Positions 21,166 to 26,185 of a DNA stretch of 32,000 bases are shown one piece after another. Origin of the DNA: Edaphobacter aggregans (GTDB lineage Bacteria; Acidobacteriota; Terriglobia; Terriglobales; Acidobacteriaceae). The position numbers and the translations under genes are program-made. The notes beneath the pieces were generated by a model. The model was not told the origin of the DNA. It searched no databases and saw nothing but the letters and a program-made list of their open reading frames with translations. The number at the start of each line of letters is the position of its first letter. Within the stretch, counting starts at the first letter, position 1. The DNA lies in assembly GCF_003945235.1 (NCBI RefSeq), contig NZ_RSDW01000001.1, forward strand, positions 1,740,001 to 1,772,000, written 5' to 3'.

Positions 21166-21996
21166 ATGACCCCAGCCGTCTCCACCACAGGCCTCACTCG
21201 CCGCTTCGGCGACTTCACCGCAGTCGAAGACGTCAATCTTTCCGTCGCACCGGGCCAGTTCTTCGGCTTCCTCGGCCCTAACGGAGCCGGCAAGTCCACG
21301 ACCATCAAGATGCTCACCGGCTTGCTCGCGCCCACCTCCGGCTCCATCGAGATTCTCGGCCTCGACGCCGCCACCAACCCCATCGAAGTCAAGCGTCAGA
21401 TAGGCGTGGTCCCCGAAGGCCTCGCCCTCTTCGGCCGTCTAACCGCAGCCGAATACCTCCGCTTCGTCGGTCGCATGTACGGTCTCGACCGCGCCACCAC
21501 CGCCGACCGTACCCACGAGCTTCTCGACTTCATGAACCTCGCGGCCGAACCCAAAAAGCTCATCACCGACTTTTCCCACGGCATGCAGAAAAAGCTCGCC
21601 CTCGCCGCCGCCGTCATTCATGGCCCCAAAATCCTCTTCCTCGACGAGCCCTTCGAAGGCGTAGACGCCATCGCAGCCGGCACCCTCAAAAACATGCTTC
21701 AACGCATGATCGCCCGCGGCGCAACCATCTTCCTCACCTCGCACGTCCTTGAAATCGTCGAACGCCTCTGCAGCCACATCGCCATCATCGACCGCGGCCG
21801 CCTCATCGCCCAGGGCTCCCTGGAAGAACTCCGCGCTGGCACGAAACCGCTCCACACGACTCCCAACGGCCCCTCCTCGCCGCAACACCTCACCCTCGAA
21901 GAGATCTTCGTCCAAATCGTCGGAACCCAGCAAATCCCCTCCGAGCCAACAACGGCCGTCCTGCCTCCCCCAAAGGAGCTCTCATGGCTCGGTTAA
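21166..21996 (+). CDS. ABC transporter ATP-binding protein (ABC-2/DrrA-type exporter ATPase)
   Basis: 276 aa. Walker A GPNGAGKST, Q-loop, degenerate signature FSHGMQKKLAL, Walker B ILFLDEPFEGVD, H-loop TSH. Confidence 0.93.
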   Translation: MTPAVSTTGLTRRFGDFTAVEDVNLSVAPGQFFGFLGPNGAGKSTTIKMLTGLLAPTSGSIEILGLDAATNPIEVKRQIGVVPEGLALFGRLTAAEYLRFVGRMYGLDRATTADRTHELLDFMNLAAEPKKLITDFSHGMQKKLALAAAVIHGPKILFLDEPFEGVDAIAAGTLKNMLQRMIARGATIFLTSHVLEIVERLCSHIAIIDRGRLIAQGSLEELRAGTKPLHTTPNGPSSPQHLTLEEIFVQIVGTQQIPSEPTTAVLPPPKELSWLG

Positions 21997-23663
21997 CCAC
22001 CATTCCTCGCGCAACCGATCACTTCGCCGCCATCGCCCAACTACGCTGGCGTCTCTTCATCAACGCCTTCCGCGGCAGGAGCGGCAAGATGTCGCTCGCC
22101 GCTCTCATCATCCTGCGCATCATTGTCTACTCCATCGCCGCCGCAATCTCCATCGGACCAATCATTGGCTCTGGCTTTGCTGGCTACTTCGTCATAGCTC
22201 GCTCGGAACCTCTGCTGCTGCCGACCATCCTTTGGATACTCTCAGCCATCTGGTGCTTCATCTCCTTCAGTGCGTCACTGCAGCCTGCGCTGCAATCGGG
22301 CGGCTTCGATCTCTCTCAACTGATTCGCTTCCCCATCAGCTTTCCCTTCTATCTCGGCACACGAATCTTCTTTAGTTTCTTCAGCTACACCACCATCGTC
22401 GGCTTCTGTTGTCTGCTCGCTACGGCCACCGGAATCGGCATTGCCCAACCAGGTCTTTTTCTCTGGGCTGCTCCCGTCCTCCTGCTCTACGGCTTCACAC
22501 TCTTTTCTTTCCTGCGCATGATCTTTCTCTGGCTCGACCGCTGGCTCGCCCAGCGACGCACCCGCGAGATCGTAGCAGCGCTCTTTGTCAGCTTCTCCCT
22601 CGCCGTACAACTCCTCGCCTCATCCGTCCGCAGTCATACAGGCCACTCGCATTCCGCCATCGCCTCGCGCTTTGACCTCCTTGCTCGCGTCATCGTTCGG
22701 CTTCACCCATTTATCGCTTTCTTTCCTCCAAACCTTGCCTCCAACGCAATTCTGCGCATGCACGCCGCGCAGCCAATCCAAGCCATCGCTTCCATGCTCG
22801 GCGTAGCCGCGTTCTGCGCAATCTTTCTCGCCCTGTACGCCCTTCGTCTTCGCGGAGAATTTCGCGGAGAGAACTTCAGCGAAACATCCGCGCGCAGCAC
22901 ACAATCGCCCAGCGGCAAACCGGCCCTTGGTTGGAACCTCTCCGGTCTCTCTCCCGCGCTCGCAGCCTGTATGGAAAAAGAGACACGCTATCTCCTCCGC
23001 GGCGGCAACGCTCTCGTAGGCCTCTTCAGTCCGCTTATCTTCGTTGCTATTCTCACCAACCGCGGCGGTGCACTATCAAGATCGCCTGACATCATGCTTC
23101 CCGCCGCCCTCGCCTACCTCCTGTTCGGACTCTTCGCCACCCTCTACAACGTCTTTGGCACCGACGGCCCTGGCATCCATCTCTACTTCCTCGCACCCGT
23201 CCGCCTTCGCGACGTCTTCATCGCGAAAAACCTCGTCAGCACGGCTCTCATCACCACTGAAGTCCTGCTCGCCACGCTCATCGTCACCTACTCGCACAAG
23301 ATCGCGCCGCCAGTCCTCGCAGCCACACTTCTGTGGTTCGTCTTCGCTCTCTTTACGAACCTCACCGTCGGAAACATCCGCTCTCTTCGCGCCCCACGCC
23401 GAGTCGTCATCGGCAAAACTATGCGCCAGCCTCCCTCACGCGGAGGAGCCTACATTACTCTCCTCGTCCTCTTCGGTTCTCTGTTCCTCTGCATGGCGAC
23501 TCTCTGGCTCTGCCGCCACTTCGGTTACCCCTGGCTGCCCTCGCTCATCTTTCTCGCATTAGCAGCCGCAGCCTTCGCAGCCTATATTCGCGTCCTGCAC
23601 CGAATCGACACGATGGCCCTAGCCCAACGCGACACTCTCACCCGGGAACTCTGCAAAACCTAG
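21984..23663 (+). CDS. Polytopic membrane protein, putative ABC exporter permease partner
   Basis: 559 aa with about 12-14 hydrophobic helices in two blocks separated by a hydrophilic loop (RGEFRGENFSETSARSTQSPSGK...). AAGGAG (21973-21978), then 5 nt, then ATG. 13-nt overlap with the ATPase gene. Confidence 0.8.
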   Translation: MARLTTIPRATDHFAAIAQLRWRLFINAFRGRSGKMSLAALIILRIIVYSIAAAISIGPIIGSGFAGYFVIARSEPLLLPTILWILSAIWCFISFSASLQPALQSGGFDLSQLIRFPISFPFYLGTRIFFSFFSYTTIVGFCCLLATATGIGIAQPGLFLWAAPVLLLYGFTLFSFLRMIFLWLDRWLAQRRTREIVAALFVSFSLAVQLLASSVRSHTGHSHSAIASRFDLLARVIVRLHPFIAFFPPNLASNAILRMHAAQPIQAIASMLGVAAFCAIFLALYALRLRGEFRGENFSETSARSTQSPSGKPALGWNLSGLSPALAACMEKETRYLLRGGNALVGLFSPLIFVAILTNRGGALSRSPDIMLPAALAYLLFGLFATLYNVFGTDGPGIHLYFLAPVRLRDVFIAKNLVSTALITTEVLLATLIVTYSHKIAPPVLAATLLWFVFALFTNLTVGNIRSLRAPRRVVIGKTMRQPPSRGGAYITLLVLFGSLFLCMATLWLCRHFGYPWLPSLIFLALAAAAFAAYIRVLHRIDTMALAQRDTLTRELCKT

Positions 23664-23667
23664 CCGC

Positions 23668-24702
23668 TCAGCGACTAGCCTCCCACTGCCCTGGCACTCC
23701 TGCCTCCGTTGCCGTTGAACCCCATCGCCCGTCCAAGAGACGTCGACCCTCCGGCCCCAGCGTCGCCGAATATGAGCCCATTGCCAGATGTAACTGACGC
23801 GGATGCACACTTTTTATAGATGTTCCCTCAAGAATCACCTGCCGTGTCGCTTCCACATAGTGACCCGTAACCTCTTCGGTGCCGGCTAATTCACCATTCA
23901 GCCGCCAGTTGAATGTCCCCTTCAGCAACAAACCATCCGGCGTCGGCTCCTGCGATGTGAACTGGAGAACCGAATTGCTCCAGTCATTCTTGCTGTCATC
24001 GATCGCATTATGCAGTGTCCATATCCCATACGTCAGGTGAGGAAGAGCACGCGCGGGAGAGGTTTGCGTTACCTGAGATGGCTCAGGCTGCGCAGTAGGA
24101 GGAGTCGACGTCTGAGCCCCCACCTCCGCCGTCTTGTGACTAAATCTCGGCATTACAAAAAGGGCAAAAAGCACACCGGCAAGCACTACTCCGCCCACAG
24201 GAAGAATCGCTGATCGAAACACCGATCGATTCGTGTGTTCAGATTCGAGTGCGGGTCTGGCCGCCGGCGCAGGCGGCGGTACATACGCAGGTCTTGGCGG
24301 TGTCTCTTGTCGAGCCGCCTCCTTTGACTCTAGTCCAAGTCTCTCCACCAGCCGCTCAAGCCCATGCGCATAATCTGTCCTGAAATCGATCCACTGAACC
24401 CGCCCCAACCGAAACGGAATCTCGCACTCCCGATACAGAATCGGAATCACCGTCTTCTTCGACTCCAGCCCAAACGCCACCTCATCCAGCACATTCGGAG
24501 AGTTCACCGAATCCGGCGACAGAATCACCAGCAGATGCTGACAATTCTTCAAAGCATCCTGTACCGTCATGTCCCACCGGTCACCTGGAGCAATATCCTT
24601 ATCCAGCCAAACCATTGCTCCGGCAGCCTTCAGGTCACCTGTCAGTCGAACCGTAAAGTCTGTGTCCACATGGCTGTAGCTGAAAAAGGTACCCAAGGCC
24701 AC
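23668..24702 (-). CDS. TIR domain - TM helix - uncharacterised extracytoplasmic domain protein
   Basis: N-terminus ..FFSYSHVDTDFTVRLTGDLKAAGAMVWLDKDIAPGDRW...HLLVILSPDSVNSPNVLDEVAFG...VIPILYRECEIP...WIDF shows the TIR_2-like pattern. It is followed by a Pro-rich linker, the TM helix AILPVGGVVLAGVLFALFVM, and then a ~150-aa unassigned C-terminal region. The ORF-track start is GTG at 24702, but GGAGG directly abuts it. TTG at 24696 (6-nt spacing) is the more likely start. Confidence 0.85.
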   Translation of the reverse strand: MALGTFFSYSHVDTDFTVRLTGDLKAAGAMVWLDKDIAPGDRWDMTVQDALKNCQHLLVILSPDSVNSPNVLDEVAFGLESKKTVIPILYRECEIPFRLGRVQWIDFRTDYAHGLERLVERLGLESKEAARQETPPRPAYVPPPAPAARPALESEHTNRSVFRSAILPVGGVVLAGVLFALFVMPRFSHKTAEVGAQTSTPPTAQPEPSQVTQTSPARALPHLTYGIWTLHNAIDDSKNDWSNSVLQFTSQEPTPDGLLLKGTFNWRLNGELAGTEEVTGHYVEATRQVILEGTSIKSVHPRQLHLAMGSYSATLGPEGRRLLDGRWGSTATEAGVPGQWEASR

Positions 24703-24763
24703 CCTCCAATCTCGCCGCTATGCACAAAAACATACTCTTCCGCCTGCCCGTGCACCAGCCCAA

Positions 24764-26185
24764 TTACTCAGCCATCCCCTCCAGCACAACCTCGCTTACC
24801 GGCTCTGCCCCAAACTGCCCCTCCCACTTCGCAACCACCACACTTGCCAGGCAATTCCCCACCACATTCACCGTCGTCCGAGCCATATCCGCCAGCGCAT
24901 CGATACCCAAAATCACAAAGATCGGCTCCGTAGGTAGCCGAAACGTAGCCGCAGTAGCCAACAGCACAACCAGCGTAGCCCTCGGAACCCCCGCCACACC
25001 CTTACTGGTCAACATCAGAGTCCCCATCATCAAAAGCTGCTCACCCAACGAAAGATGCACCCCCGCCGCCTGCGCCACAAAGATGCTCGCAGCAGCCAGG
25101 TAAAGCGTCGACCCATCCAGATTGAAGCTATATCCCGCCGGAATCACAAACGACACAATCCGCCGCGGAACCCCCAACGCCTCCATCGACTCCATCGCCC
25201 GCGGCAGCGCCGCCTCACTCGTCGATGTAGCAAACGCAATCGTAGCCGGCTCAGCCACCGCTACCAGAAATCTCTTCACCGGCACCTTGAACAGCAAAGC
25301 AATCGGCAGCAGCACCAGCAGCCCAAACGCCACCAGAGCCCCATAGATCGTCAGCAGCAGCTTGCCCAGATTCACCAGCACGCCCAGCCCCATATGCCCG
25401 ACCGTATACGCCATCGCCGCGCCCACCCCAATCGGCGCAAAGTACATCACCACATTGGTGAACTTGAACATCACCTCGCTCAGGCTCTCGCAAAGCCGCA
25501 GCACAGGCGCCCGCTTCTCCTCACTCAAAGTAGCCAGAGCAATCCCAAAGAAGACCGCAAACACCGCCACCTGCAGAATCTGCCCCTCCGCCACCGACTT
25601 AGCAATATTCTCCGGAAACACATGCAGCAAAAAGTCCTGCCAATGTGTAGGCGGAGGAGCCGTAACCACCTCGCCGCTGCTCACCACCTCAGGCACATGC
25701 AGCCCGACCCCGGCCTTGCTGATATTGATCGCCACCAGCCCCACCACCAGCGCCAGCGTCGTCACCACCTCGAAGTAGACGAGGCTCTTCACGCCCATCC
25801 GCCCCACGCCCTTCAAATCGCCATGCCCCGCAATCCCCGTCACCAGTGTCGCCAGAATCAGCGGAGCCACAATCGTCTTGATCAGCCTCAAAAAGATATC
25901 GCTAAACACCCGCAGCCCCACCCCAACCGCCGGAGCATCGAACCCCACCTCTGCCCCCGCCACCATCGCTACGAAGATCCAGGGCGTCACCGACCGCCGC
26001 CGCCACGCAAACACCATCAACACCACCACACCCAACCACCGCAGCACCATTGCAACGCCGTGCCCAGCCCCCCCATACATCAGCCCCAGAGCAATCCCCG
26101 CAGCCAACAAGCACGCCGCCACCGCCACTAAAACCCGTTCTGAACGCACGTTTTCCATTCCGCGCAGAATACCAGCATCCCCCAA
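24764..26185 (-). CDS. Dicarboxylate/amino acid:cation symporter (DAACS/GltP-DctA family)
   Basis: 473 aa, polytopic. ...FLRLIKTIVAPLILATLVTGIAG..., ...SSEAALP..., ...IPAGYSFNLDGSTLY..., ...ILGIDALADMARTTVNVVGN... are DAACS signatures. Start uncertain: TTG at 26185 or ATG at 26158. Confidence 0.92.
   Translation of the reverse strand: MGDAGILRGMENVRSERVLVAVAACLLAAGIALGLMYGGAGHGVAMVLRWLGVVVLMVFAWRRRSVTPWIFVAMVAGAEVGFDAPAVGVGLRVFSDIFLRLIKTIVAPLILATLVTGIAGHGDLKGVGRMGVKSLVYFEVVTTLALVVGLVAINISKAGVGLHVPEVVSSGEVVTAPPPTHWQDFLLHVFPENIAKSVAEGQILQVAVFAVFFGIALATLSEEKRAPVLRLCESLSEVMFKFTNVVMYFAPIGVGAAMAYTVGHMGLGVLVNLGKLLLTIYGALVAFGLLVLLPIALLFKVPVKRFLVAVAEPATIAFATSTSEAALPRAMESMEALGVPRRIVSFVIPAGYSFNLDGSTLYLAAASIFVAQAAGVHLSLGEQLLMMGTLMLTSKGVAGVPRATLVVLLATAATFRLPTEPIFVILGIDALADMARTTVNVVGNCLASVVVAKWEGQFGAEPVSEVVLEGMAE

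Follow-up and report, generated by a model that had tools for sequence, protein, structure and literature searches.

The window considered here is a stretch of 32,000 nucleotides of the Edaphobacter aggregans genome (6.15-Mb contig NZ_RSDW01000001.1, positions 1,740,001 to 1,772,000 of the forward strand), and it carries on its minus strand a gene for a membrane protein with a TIR domain. The product, WP_185827041.1 / RSL15965.1, is listed in RefSeq as a “TIR domain-containing protein” of 342 amino acids (aa). It combines an N-terminal TIR head, a single transmembrane (TM) helix and a C-terminal module that is predicted to fold as a small beta-barrel outside the cytoplasm. A first-pass annotation, made from the sequence alone, had described this succession of TIR domain, one TM helix and beta-rich tail, and the reading-frame, Pfam, fold and hydropathy analyses all confirmed it. 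The open reading frame (ORF) that it had reported, 23668..24702 on the minus strand, was verified and counts 344 aa from the GTG at 24702. Its start, in turn, had to be corrected, as RefSeq begins the protein in the same frame at the TTG at 24696, two codons downstream of that GTG, and a GGAGG lies 6 nt upstream of this TTG. Residue numbers given below follow the ORF, counted from the GTG; RefSeq numbers are lower by 2. The gene is divided into the following parts.

23668..24696, minus strand: coding sequence of WP_185827041.1 / RSL15965.1, 342 aa, with TTG start and stop codon at 23668-23670
24346..24687, minus strand: TIR_2 domain, predicted cytoplasmic, residues 6-119 (Pfam E=7.8e-26; AlphaFold2 confidence, pLDDT, 80-92; TIR matches in Foldseek; profile matches to NAD+-cleaving, or NADase, TIRs)
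24481..24483, minus strand: codon GAG of the putatively catalytic Glu74 (RefSeq Glu72), within the clade motif S-x-N-V-x-D-E
24214..24330, minus strand: Pro-rich linker of low model confidence, predicted cytoplasmic, residues 125-163 (8 Pro in 39 residues)
24151..24210, minus strand: single TM helix, residues 165-184, AILPVGGVVLAGVLFALFVM (Kyte-Doolittle 19-mer mean 2.58; positive-inside bias in the family)
24049..24150, minus strand: Thr/Pro/Gln-rich linker, predicted extracytoplasmic, residues 185-218
23671..24048, minus strand: module modelled as an eight-stranded calycin-like beta-barrel, residues 219-344, for which Pfam has no model (AlphaFold2 pLDDT 95.1, pTM 0.88)

The TIR head and its glutamate

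The assignment of the N-terminus to the TIR_2 family is borne out by both sequence profile and fold. Pfam PF13676 covers residues 6-119 with 91.4 bits (cutoff 28; E=7.8e-26) and nearly its whole length, from profile position 2 to 122 of 122, and PF01582 is matched in addition at 1e-08. An AlphaFold2 model was built on 17 full-length homologues and then compared with known structures by Foldseek. In this model, whose pLDDT is 80-92 over the domain, the head adopts a flavodoxin-like TIR fold. The best structural match is the TIR domain of the Hydra receptor TRR-2 (4w8g, E=4e-7, TMt 0.83), followed by the TIR domain of SARM1 (0.72-0.75), the SPARTA TIR-APAZ and MyD88.

The residue on which a possible enzymatic activity would depend is the Glu of the segment NVLDEV, which is E74 in the ORF and E72 in RefSeq and occupies the catalytic position of helix alphaC. 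It is invariant in the alignment of the 17 full-length homologues, which spans three TIR subtypes that are 23-30% identical to the E. aggregans head, and it is aligned to Glu in 105/105 of the relatives alignable by BLAST. In a profile search of the PDB, E74 falls on the Glu of PdTIR (3h16), of the BabAgo TIR-APAZ (8qlo) and of a bacterial TIR (7uxr), a residue which we take to be the catalytic one in PdTIR, TIR-APAZ and the bacterial NADase TIRs. Non-catalytic scaffolding TIRs generally do not have it. As the Glu is invariant across such divergent heads, catalysis is favoured over pure scaffolding. The placement of this Glu at the catalytic position, which the first-pass annotation had proposed, therefore stood, in so far as it is aligned with the Glu of 3h16, 8qlo and 7uxr; the usual surrounding of the residue is not kept. 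NADase TIRs usually carry an aromatic residue, Trp, four positions ahead of the catalytic Glu (W-x-x-x-E). In the clade of the E. aggregans protein this place is taken by a conserved Asn, Asn70, so that the signature reads S-x-N-V-x-D-E and W-x-x-x-E is not found. The other two TIR subtypes that bear the same tail have W or F at the position of Asn70.

The betaD-alphaD stretch of the head, KKTVIPILYRECEIPFRLGRVQWIDF (24385-24462, residues 81-106), shares 14/26 identical residues with the corresponding stretch of Hydra Toll-related receptor 2, HQIIPILYRPCEVPYFLNHMTYLDW. Judged from this alignment, the stretch appears to be a motif of Toll-like receptor (TLR) type within a bacterial TIR clade that retains Glu at the catalytic position.

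These data bear on a purely structural role. It is very unlikely that the head is a non-enzymatic adaptor, as in animal TLRs, which would nucleate an assembly with a TIR protein encoded elsewhere in the genome. Such a role would agree with the Hydra Toll-related receptor TIR being the closest solved relative, with the identities in its betaD-alphaD stretch, and with the missing aromatic residue before the Glu. The invariance of the Glu in all 105 relatives and across the divergent subtypes argues against it, the more so as Hydra TRR-2 itself has no Glu there; nor is a TIR partner encoded nearby in the window.

Membrane helix and barrel tail

The protein contains one strongly hydrophobic segment, the 20-mer at residues 165-184 (Kyte-Doolittle 19-mer mean 2.58), in agreement with the single TM helix that had been noticed in the raw sequence. 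A hydrophobic segment occurs at the equivalent place in all full-length homologues. It is flanked on its N-terminal side by the 39-aa Pro-rich linker and on its C-terminal side by a Thr/Pro/Gln-rich linker of about 34-36 aa, both of which are modelled with pLDDT <50 and vary in length among homologues. No signal peptide precedes the TIR domain in the E. aggregans protein. In 82 relatives with a single TM helix, the Lys plus Arg residues on the flanks of the helix amount to 3.13 on the N-terminal side vs 1.77 on the C-terminal side (55 vs 17 proteins; Wilcoxon p ~1e-6). Because a signal peptide is lacking, the flanks show a positive-inside bias and the relatives of the tail are mostly exported (see below), the TIR domain is predicted to lie inside and the tail outside. 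The topology first deduced from the sequence is thus upheld by the charge bias and by the export signals on tail relatives.

The tail, residues 219-344 (126 aa), is conserved more strongly than any other part of the full-length homologues, and its last residues are invariably W-E-A-x-R. The full-length proteins share 49 invariant positions, most of them within it; the invariant residues of the barrel include W228, D235, W266, E276, Y311, W327 and W340. It had been described as a beta-rich module of no known family, and indeed it has no match past threshold among Pfam, NCBIfam or PDB sequences. DUF6081 (E=0.013-0.1) and a lectin (E=0.72) were considered as its identity and set aside as chance-level matches. 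When the tail is modelled alone together with 31 diverse relatives, AlphaFold2 returns eight sequential beta-strands at pLDDT 95.1 and a pTM of 0.88. The modelling and structure search that had been recommended for this module thus yielded an eight-stranded barrel and, against the PDB, nothing at E<=1e-3. The top Foldseek matches are a de novo beta-barrel, nitrobindin, retinol-binding protein and avidin/shwanavidin, with E from 6.6e-3 to 0.3 and template-modelling scores of 0.44-0.63; the periplasmic ToxS/VtrC barrels of Vibrio come lower down and at weaker probability. No viral structure of BFVD matches significantly (none at E<=1e-3). On the basis of the model, we read the tail as a barrel of calycin type that constitutes a separate family.

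Avidin, lipocalin and nitrobindin bind ligands; so do the VtrC/ToxS barrels, whose ligands are bile salts and which control a TM regulator with a single membrane pass. As modelled, the tail would share with all of them an eight-stranded up-and-down barrel of about 120 aa placed outside the cytoplasm. The fold matches to VtrC/ToxS and the calycins are weak (template-modelling scores 0.3-0.63, E>1e-3), and there is no sequence similarity to the tail. Unlike VtrC/ToxS, the barrel of the E. aggregans protein is fused in cis to its TM effector.

The size of the tail family was assessed by an exhaustive HMMER search with the tail profile at E<=1e-3, which gave 160 cluster representatives, 40 of them at E<=1e-30. 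A word-index search by the tail alone recovered only 8 truncated fragments. A local classification of 155 tail-family sequences gave the following architectures.

TIR-headed tail proteins: 14 of 155
Short N-terminus, one hydrophobic segment and tail: 60 of 155
Fragments: 17 of 155
Other architectures: 61 of 155
No tail match by the local model: 3 of 155

Stand-alone members have a Sec signal peptide or a lipobox at the N-terminus, and several of them carry a PEP-CTERM anchor at the C-terminus. The larger fusions include Peptidase_M23 with dockerin, PKD, a C39-like peptidase, M48, Sel1 with LRR_5, and a caspase that bears a signal peptide. By these signals, the members of the tail family are predicted to be mostly exported, as secreted proteins, lipoproteins, or PEP-CTERM- or TM-anchored proteins. 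The signal-peptide-bearing caspase (Peptidase_C14) is found in P0138, and in P0158 and P0146 the tail is joined to DUF4062 heads without a TM helix; this company suggests that the barrel may be a general sensor or targeting module for effectors of the conflict type. Some further proteins are touched by the tail profile only in part. P0190 (4382 aa), P0233, P0259 and P0264 have 5-10 matches each, which cover only about 33 profile positions (63-96 or 80-119) and hint that the barrel hairpins resemble a short beta-hairpin repeat of giant repetitive proteins.

The combination of tether and outside module admits a mechanism based on proteolysis, which is distinctly unlikely. The TM helix would restrain an auto-active TIR NADase, and cleavage by an envelope protease, in a manner similar to regulated intramembrane proteolysis, would free the TIR domain, leading to its oligomerisation and to NAD+ depletion; the barrel would serve as protease substrate or as sensor. 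The long Pro/Thr-rich linkers would be accessible to proteases, and the anti-sigma factors that are under regulated intramembrane proteolysis share the layout of a cytoplasmic domain, one TM helix and a variable periplasmic domain. A TIR NADase of bacterial origin, Dictyostelium TirC, sits on a single TM helix that restrains its toxicity; removal of the helix unleashed this toxicity, and proteolytic release was proposed as the trigger (PMC13142454). TirC is eukaryotic, has its TM helix N-terminal to the TIR domain and possesses no ectodomain, and the E. aggregans protein differs from it in all three respects. Release by cleavage is further disfavoured by the absence of a linked site-1/site-2 protease gene in any homologue context, by the existence of TIR-tail fusions without a TM helix, which would be constitutively active, and by the strong conservation of the barrel, where most of the 49 invariant positions lie and which is more readily explained by specific ligand binding than by use as a cleavage handle.

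Head-tail shuffling and genomic context

The same TIR head, at 52-68% identity, occurs in more than 80 proteins with differing C-terminal regions. Its C-terminal partners are counted below.

PF07603 DUF1566/Lcl: 15
Sel1: 6
PSII_BNR/BNR: 5
WD40: 3
Single cases: LprI, I-set Ig, ricin, PKD, MacB_PCD and others

Counted by type, more than 10 tails other than the barrel are linked to the head by a TM helix. A TM peak within 120 aa after the TIR domain was detected in 78/105 relatives; the WD40 forms have none. DUF1566, BNR, Sel1, LprI, Ig, ricin and PKD are usually extracytoplasmic domain types. Those sources of head relatives that bear an organism name point to Terriglobales and Acidobacteriota. 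Conversely, the barrel tail is fused to three distinct TIR subtypes and to DUF4062. Head and tail thus appear, from the architectures of these proteins, to be shuffled independently of each other, and this independent pairing argues for a sensor-effector coupling.

In five of the homologues (P0007, P0024, P0025, P0036, P0044) the TM helix and the barrel are separated by a further conserved domain (IDGxWIAExQKPGQPPFRIRL...ATGVARR; alignment columns ~250-350), which counts about 110 aa. A scan of a genome collection returned 6 loci in metagenome-assembled genomes and not the genome of the window itself; among these loci are L005, which encodes a short TM-plus-tail protein, and L007, which is possibly frameshifted.

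The position of the gene between its two neighbours was compared in related genomes, and the following features delimit the locus.

21984..23663, plus strand: ABC-2-type permease, convergent with the TIR gene, with 4 nt between the stop codons; kept in relatives without the TIR gene
24764..26185, minus strand: SDF-family symporter, upstream of the TIR gene on the same strand, with a gap of 61-67 nt
23664..24763, no strand assigned: inserted segment of 1.1 kb, present in the window and in L001, absent in L014, L015 and L016

The neighbours of the TIR gene in the window are housekeeping genes. On the permease side lie genes for a radical SAM protein, a class II aldolase and an ABC ATPase (RSL15963.1) with its permease; on the other side the SDF symporter is followed by DUF4440, a GAF-PAS histidine kinase and acetyl-CoA synthetase, and Dxs (RSL15959.1) and an mraZ/rsmH cluster are located farther out. 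The synteny is identical in L001, a metagenomic locus whose TIR protein is 91% identical. L014, L015 and L016, in which the adjacent permease is 68%, 64% and 56% identical to the window copy, retain the block MraZ-DUF2127-Dxs-(aldolase)-ABC-permease-SDF-DUF4440-kinase-acetyl-CoA synthetase. Here the stop codons of permease and SDF symporter are 9-68 bp apart, with no gene between them. The ABC, SDF, DUF4440 and kinase genes are kept in all three, the aldolase gene in 2/3, and a radical SAM gene is listed in none. In the junction alignments both conserved gene ends are visible, and the window has 1.1 kb extra between them. The boundaries 23664/24763 show no meaningful repeats, whether direct or inverted. 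The TIR gene is a recent, scar-less insertion of a single gene, because the flanking block is intact and the gene is absent in these three relatives.

The accessory origin that had been suspected from base composition is therefore borne out by synteny, and the gene is not a strictly conserved syntenic core gene, since three related genomes do without it. Composition itself does not mark the gene as foreign. The hint of a lower GC content was lost on counting, as the gene has 0.56 vs 0.586 in the window (standard deviation 0.03) and 24% of the windows of the same size are lower, which is not significant. A host-like excess of C over G, also claimed at first, holds for the TIR domain (-0.30); over the whole gene the skew is weaker (-0.18 vs -0.31) because of the Pro-rich linker/TM segment, where it is 0.0, and it was likewise rejected as a sign of foreign origin. 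The window as a whole (1-32000) shows a strong C>G skew of its plus strand, with a mean of -0.31 (standard deviation 0.07, 1-kb windows) that is independent of gene orientation. It is weaker only at about 1000-2800 and at the TIR gene, and an asymmetry of this strength is unusual for 32 kb.

Two further observations concern the neighbouring genes. The 559-aa ABC-2-type permease of the window has no Pfam match above threshold, with weak PF09847 12TM_1 matches in some orthologues; it is widely conserved in Acidobacteriaceae, always beside its ATPase. In L015 (6326-7013, 12749-15618) the gene calls for ABC ATPase, histidine kinase and acetyl-CoA synthetase are broken up into several short fragments, which could reflect assembly frameshifts or pseudogenisation.

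A simple consensus scan found no terminator-like or sigma70-like site in the gap between the SDF and TIR genes, with a consensus that may not suit Acidobacteria. Because such sites were not found there, transcription of the TIR gene by read-through from the SDF gene is possible.

No defence partner was detected in the window. PADLOC gave only generic similarity to mad3, AriA and pVip, and these candidates were discarded, as they reflect common features of ABC ATPases and radical SAM proteins and relatives that lack the TIR gene have the ABC genes too. Moreover, no partner gene is common to five unrelated homologue contexts. The earlier impression that no usual partner lies nearby is thus upheld by the window neighbours and by PADLOC. 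Two distant full-length homologues, P0053 and P0013 (L003:1-4732, L012:5635-12847), lie 1-6 kb from genes for giant DUF7379-CHAT proteins, a Peptidase_C14 caspase, a Tle1-like lipase and Lactamase_B, and L003 additionally carries a CAP12-PCTIR_TIR gene. This neighbourhood recalls the TIR-to-caspase signalling of type IV Thoeris described in a preprint (10.1101/2024.10.24.620036). Either a conflict island or a coincidence of lineage may lie behind it.

The genomic context is also the ground for a role outside defence, which is unlikely on balance. The barrel would sense a small molecule from the environment or made by the cell itself, and the TIR domain would make a nucleotide messenger from NAD+ or recruit a partner, thereby regulating envelope, exopolysaccharide (EPS) or biofilm physiology. 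The gene has housekeeping neighbours and immediately follows that of a dicarboxylate symporter, from which no terminator was found to separate it; tail relatives are often PEP-CTERM-anchored, and PEP-CTERM anchors are linked to exosortase/EPS systems. Many ectodomains on one output head would also be in keeping with such signalling, as TM Ser/Thr kinases and anti-sigma factors of soil Acidobacteria have similar ectodomain repertoires. Conversely, the distribution of the gene is patchy and the insertion is absent from the syntenic relatives L014, L015 and L016, neither a receiver nor an effector for a messenger was found linked to it, and the domains that co-occur with the tail lean to conflict modules (TIR, DUF4062, caspase, peptidases).

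Known TIR systems and a possible function

The protein belongs to the TIR_2 family and not to Thoeris, CBASS/Pycsar, SPARTA or the TLR family, because a defining feature of each is lacking here. As for Thoeris, the ThsB_TIR model scores 15.6 bits (cutoff 21.2), the PADLOC ThsB match (6.9e-07) covers the TIR core only, and no gene for ThsA (SIR2/SLOG, Macro-TM) or for a caspase-like effector adjoins in the window. As for CBASS/Pycsar, the window encodes no cyclase, and the protein lacks SAVED, STING and cNMP domains. The Aga_TIR models of SPARTA in PADLOC match at profile positions ~9-142 only, which is the TIR part, and no pAgo is encoded nearby. Finally, the order TIR-TM-barrel, without signal peptide and without LRR or Ig domains, separates it from the Toll-like/IL-1 receptor family. 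Its layout is accordingly distinct from the ThsB, TIR-STING and Pycsar/CBASS formats, as had been said from the outset.

With the NADase TIRs (AbTir, PdTIR, BtTir, ThsB, SPARTA, TIR-SAVED, TIR-STING) the E. aggregans protein shares the TIR_2 family, the fold and the position of the Glu, and activation by self-association is the expected logic for both. As far as is known, these NADase TIRs are soluble, cytoplasmic proteins that respond to intracellular triggers, namely phage proteins, guide/target nucleic acid or cyclic nucleotides; most of them have partner genes or fused intracellular sensor domains. The E. aggregans protein, unlike them, is predicted to be membrane-anchored with a domain outside, and it has no partner and Asn in place of Trp. 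In its predicted layout it resembles the Toll-like, IL-1 and Hydra TRR receptors, which cross the membrane once and have a cytoplasmic TIR together with a binding domain on the outside. It differs from TLRs in having the TIR domain at the N-terminus, the C-terminus (by prediction) outside and a small beta-barrel as ectodomain instead of LRR or Ig domains, and from Hydra TRR-2 in retaining the Glu. The likeness to TLRs is best taken as an analogy of layout, not as membership.

Single-gene and two-gene TIR defence systems of E. coli have been reported whose antiphage activity depends on NADase-site residues; one new system includes a TM element, and TLR-like features seem to be absent from bacterial TIR systems according to the same study (PMC11350192). 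Compared by description only, these systems differ from the E. aggregans protein in that no extracytoplasmic sensor domain is described for them. No description of bacterial TIR receptors with an extracytoplasmic sensor domain was found in the full-text literature, a search outside of which most subscription journals lie. The architecture is visible in public databases, and an earlier description may exist.

The reading to which most weight is given, at a little less than an even chance, is that the protein is a single-pass sensor of the inner membrane, namely a TIR NADase which senses the outside and is activated by clustering. This analysis shows which domains make up the protein, where the Glu lies and how well it is conserved, the one TM helix, the outside tail, the modular family, the insertion into a conserved block and the lack of a conserved partner. 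For the protein we infer ligand binding, activation by clustering, NADase chemistry and a role in defence. In such a sensor, the TIR domain would lie in the cytoplasm and the calycin-like barrel in the periplasm or envelope, connected by disordered linkers to the one TM helix. The barrel would bind an extracytoplasmic ligand. This could be a small molecule that is hydrophobic or comes from the envelope, or else a component of the surface or of a polymer that belongs to an invader or competitor. The ligand would change the proximity or the oligomeric state of the receptors. Since both folded domains hang on long disordered linkers, the signal would pass by proximity or oligomerisation and not by a rigid piston or rotation. 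The cytoplasmic TIR domains would then self-associate. SARM1, plant TIRs, AbTir, TIR-SAVED, TIR-STING and SPARTA are TIR enzymes switched on by self-association, and therefore clustering of the barrels by a ligand is the most economical coupling. A composite active site around Glu74 would cleave NAD+, which would lead to NAD+ depletion or to a signal derived from ADP-ribose.

Several points weigh against an outside-sensing NADase. With Asn in place of Trp, it is uncertain whether the head can act as an NADase; the putative enzyme may have another substrate, product or chemistry, or it may be inactive. In sequence and in structure, the best match of the head is Hydra TRR-2, a metazoan receptor TIR without the Glu. 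The barrel has no significant structural relative in Foldseek. Tail fusions to TIR or DUF4062 heads without a TM helix occur in the metagenomic sequences P0134, P0136, P0146 and P0158, and therefore, across the family, the module is neither exclusively nor obligatorily extracytoplasmic. Lastly, the gene lies outside any defence island and may owe its expression simply to read-through from the symporter, a housekeeping gene.

What the protein does for the cell is less certain than sensing from outside to inside. The gene is an accessory single-gene cassette, and shuffling of heads and tails is typical of conflict or defence modules. A role in conflict or defence is favoured over a housekeeping one because of the accessory insertion, the independent shuffling and the company of the tail (TIR, DUF4062, caspase, peptidases). 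More tentatively, and with appreciable doubt, the protein may stand for an undescribed class of bacterial single-pass receptors which would combine a catalytic TIR output with interchangeable extracytoplasmic sensors (barrel, DUF1566, BNR propellers, Sel1, LprI, Ig, ricin, PKD). Such a class would be an inverted counterpart of the Toll-like layout that serves NAD+-based signalling or cell arrest, and the barrel would be a new and widespread ligand-binding family.

If this is true, such receptors would detect phage adsorption, competitor molecules or envelope ligands outside the membrane. To our knowledge, the well-studied bacterial TIR systems all detect trouble from inside the cell. A sensor facing outwards on a TIR enzyme would let events at the envelope set off NAD+-based immunity or signalling, whether the cytoplasm is invaded later or not at all, and would supply a bacterial counterpart to the layout of animal TLRs. 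In this regard, the TIR clade seems, from its alignments, unusually TLR-like and yet keeps the Glu at the catalytic position. The mix-and-match ectodomains would offer a ready comparative set for the question of what such receptors recognise, and the tail defines a domain family that is new, can be modelled with confidence, counts about 160 cluster representatives and has had no name so far.

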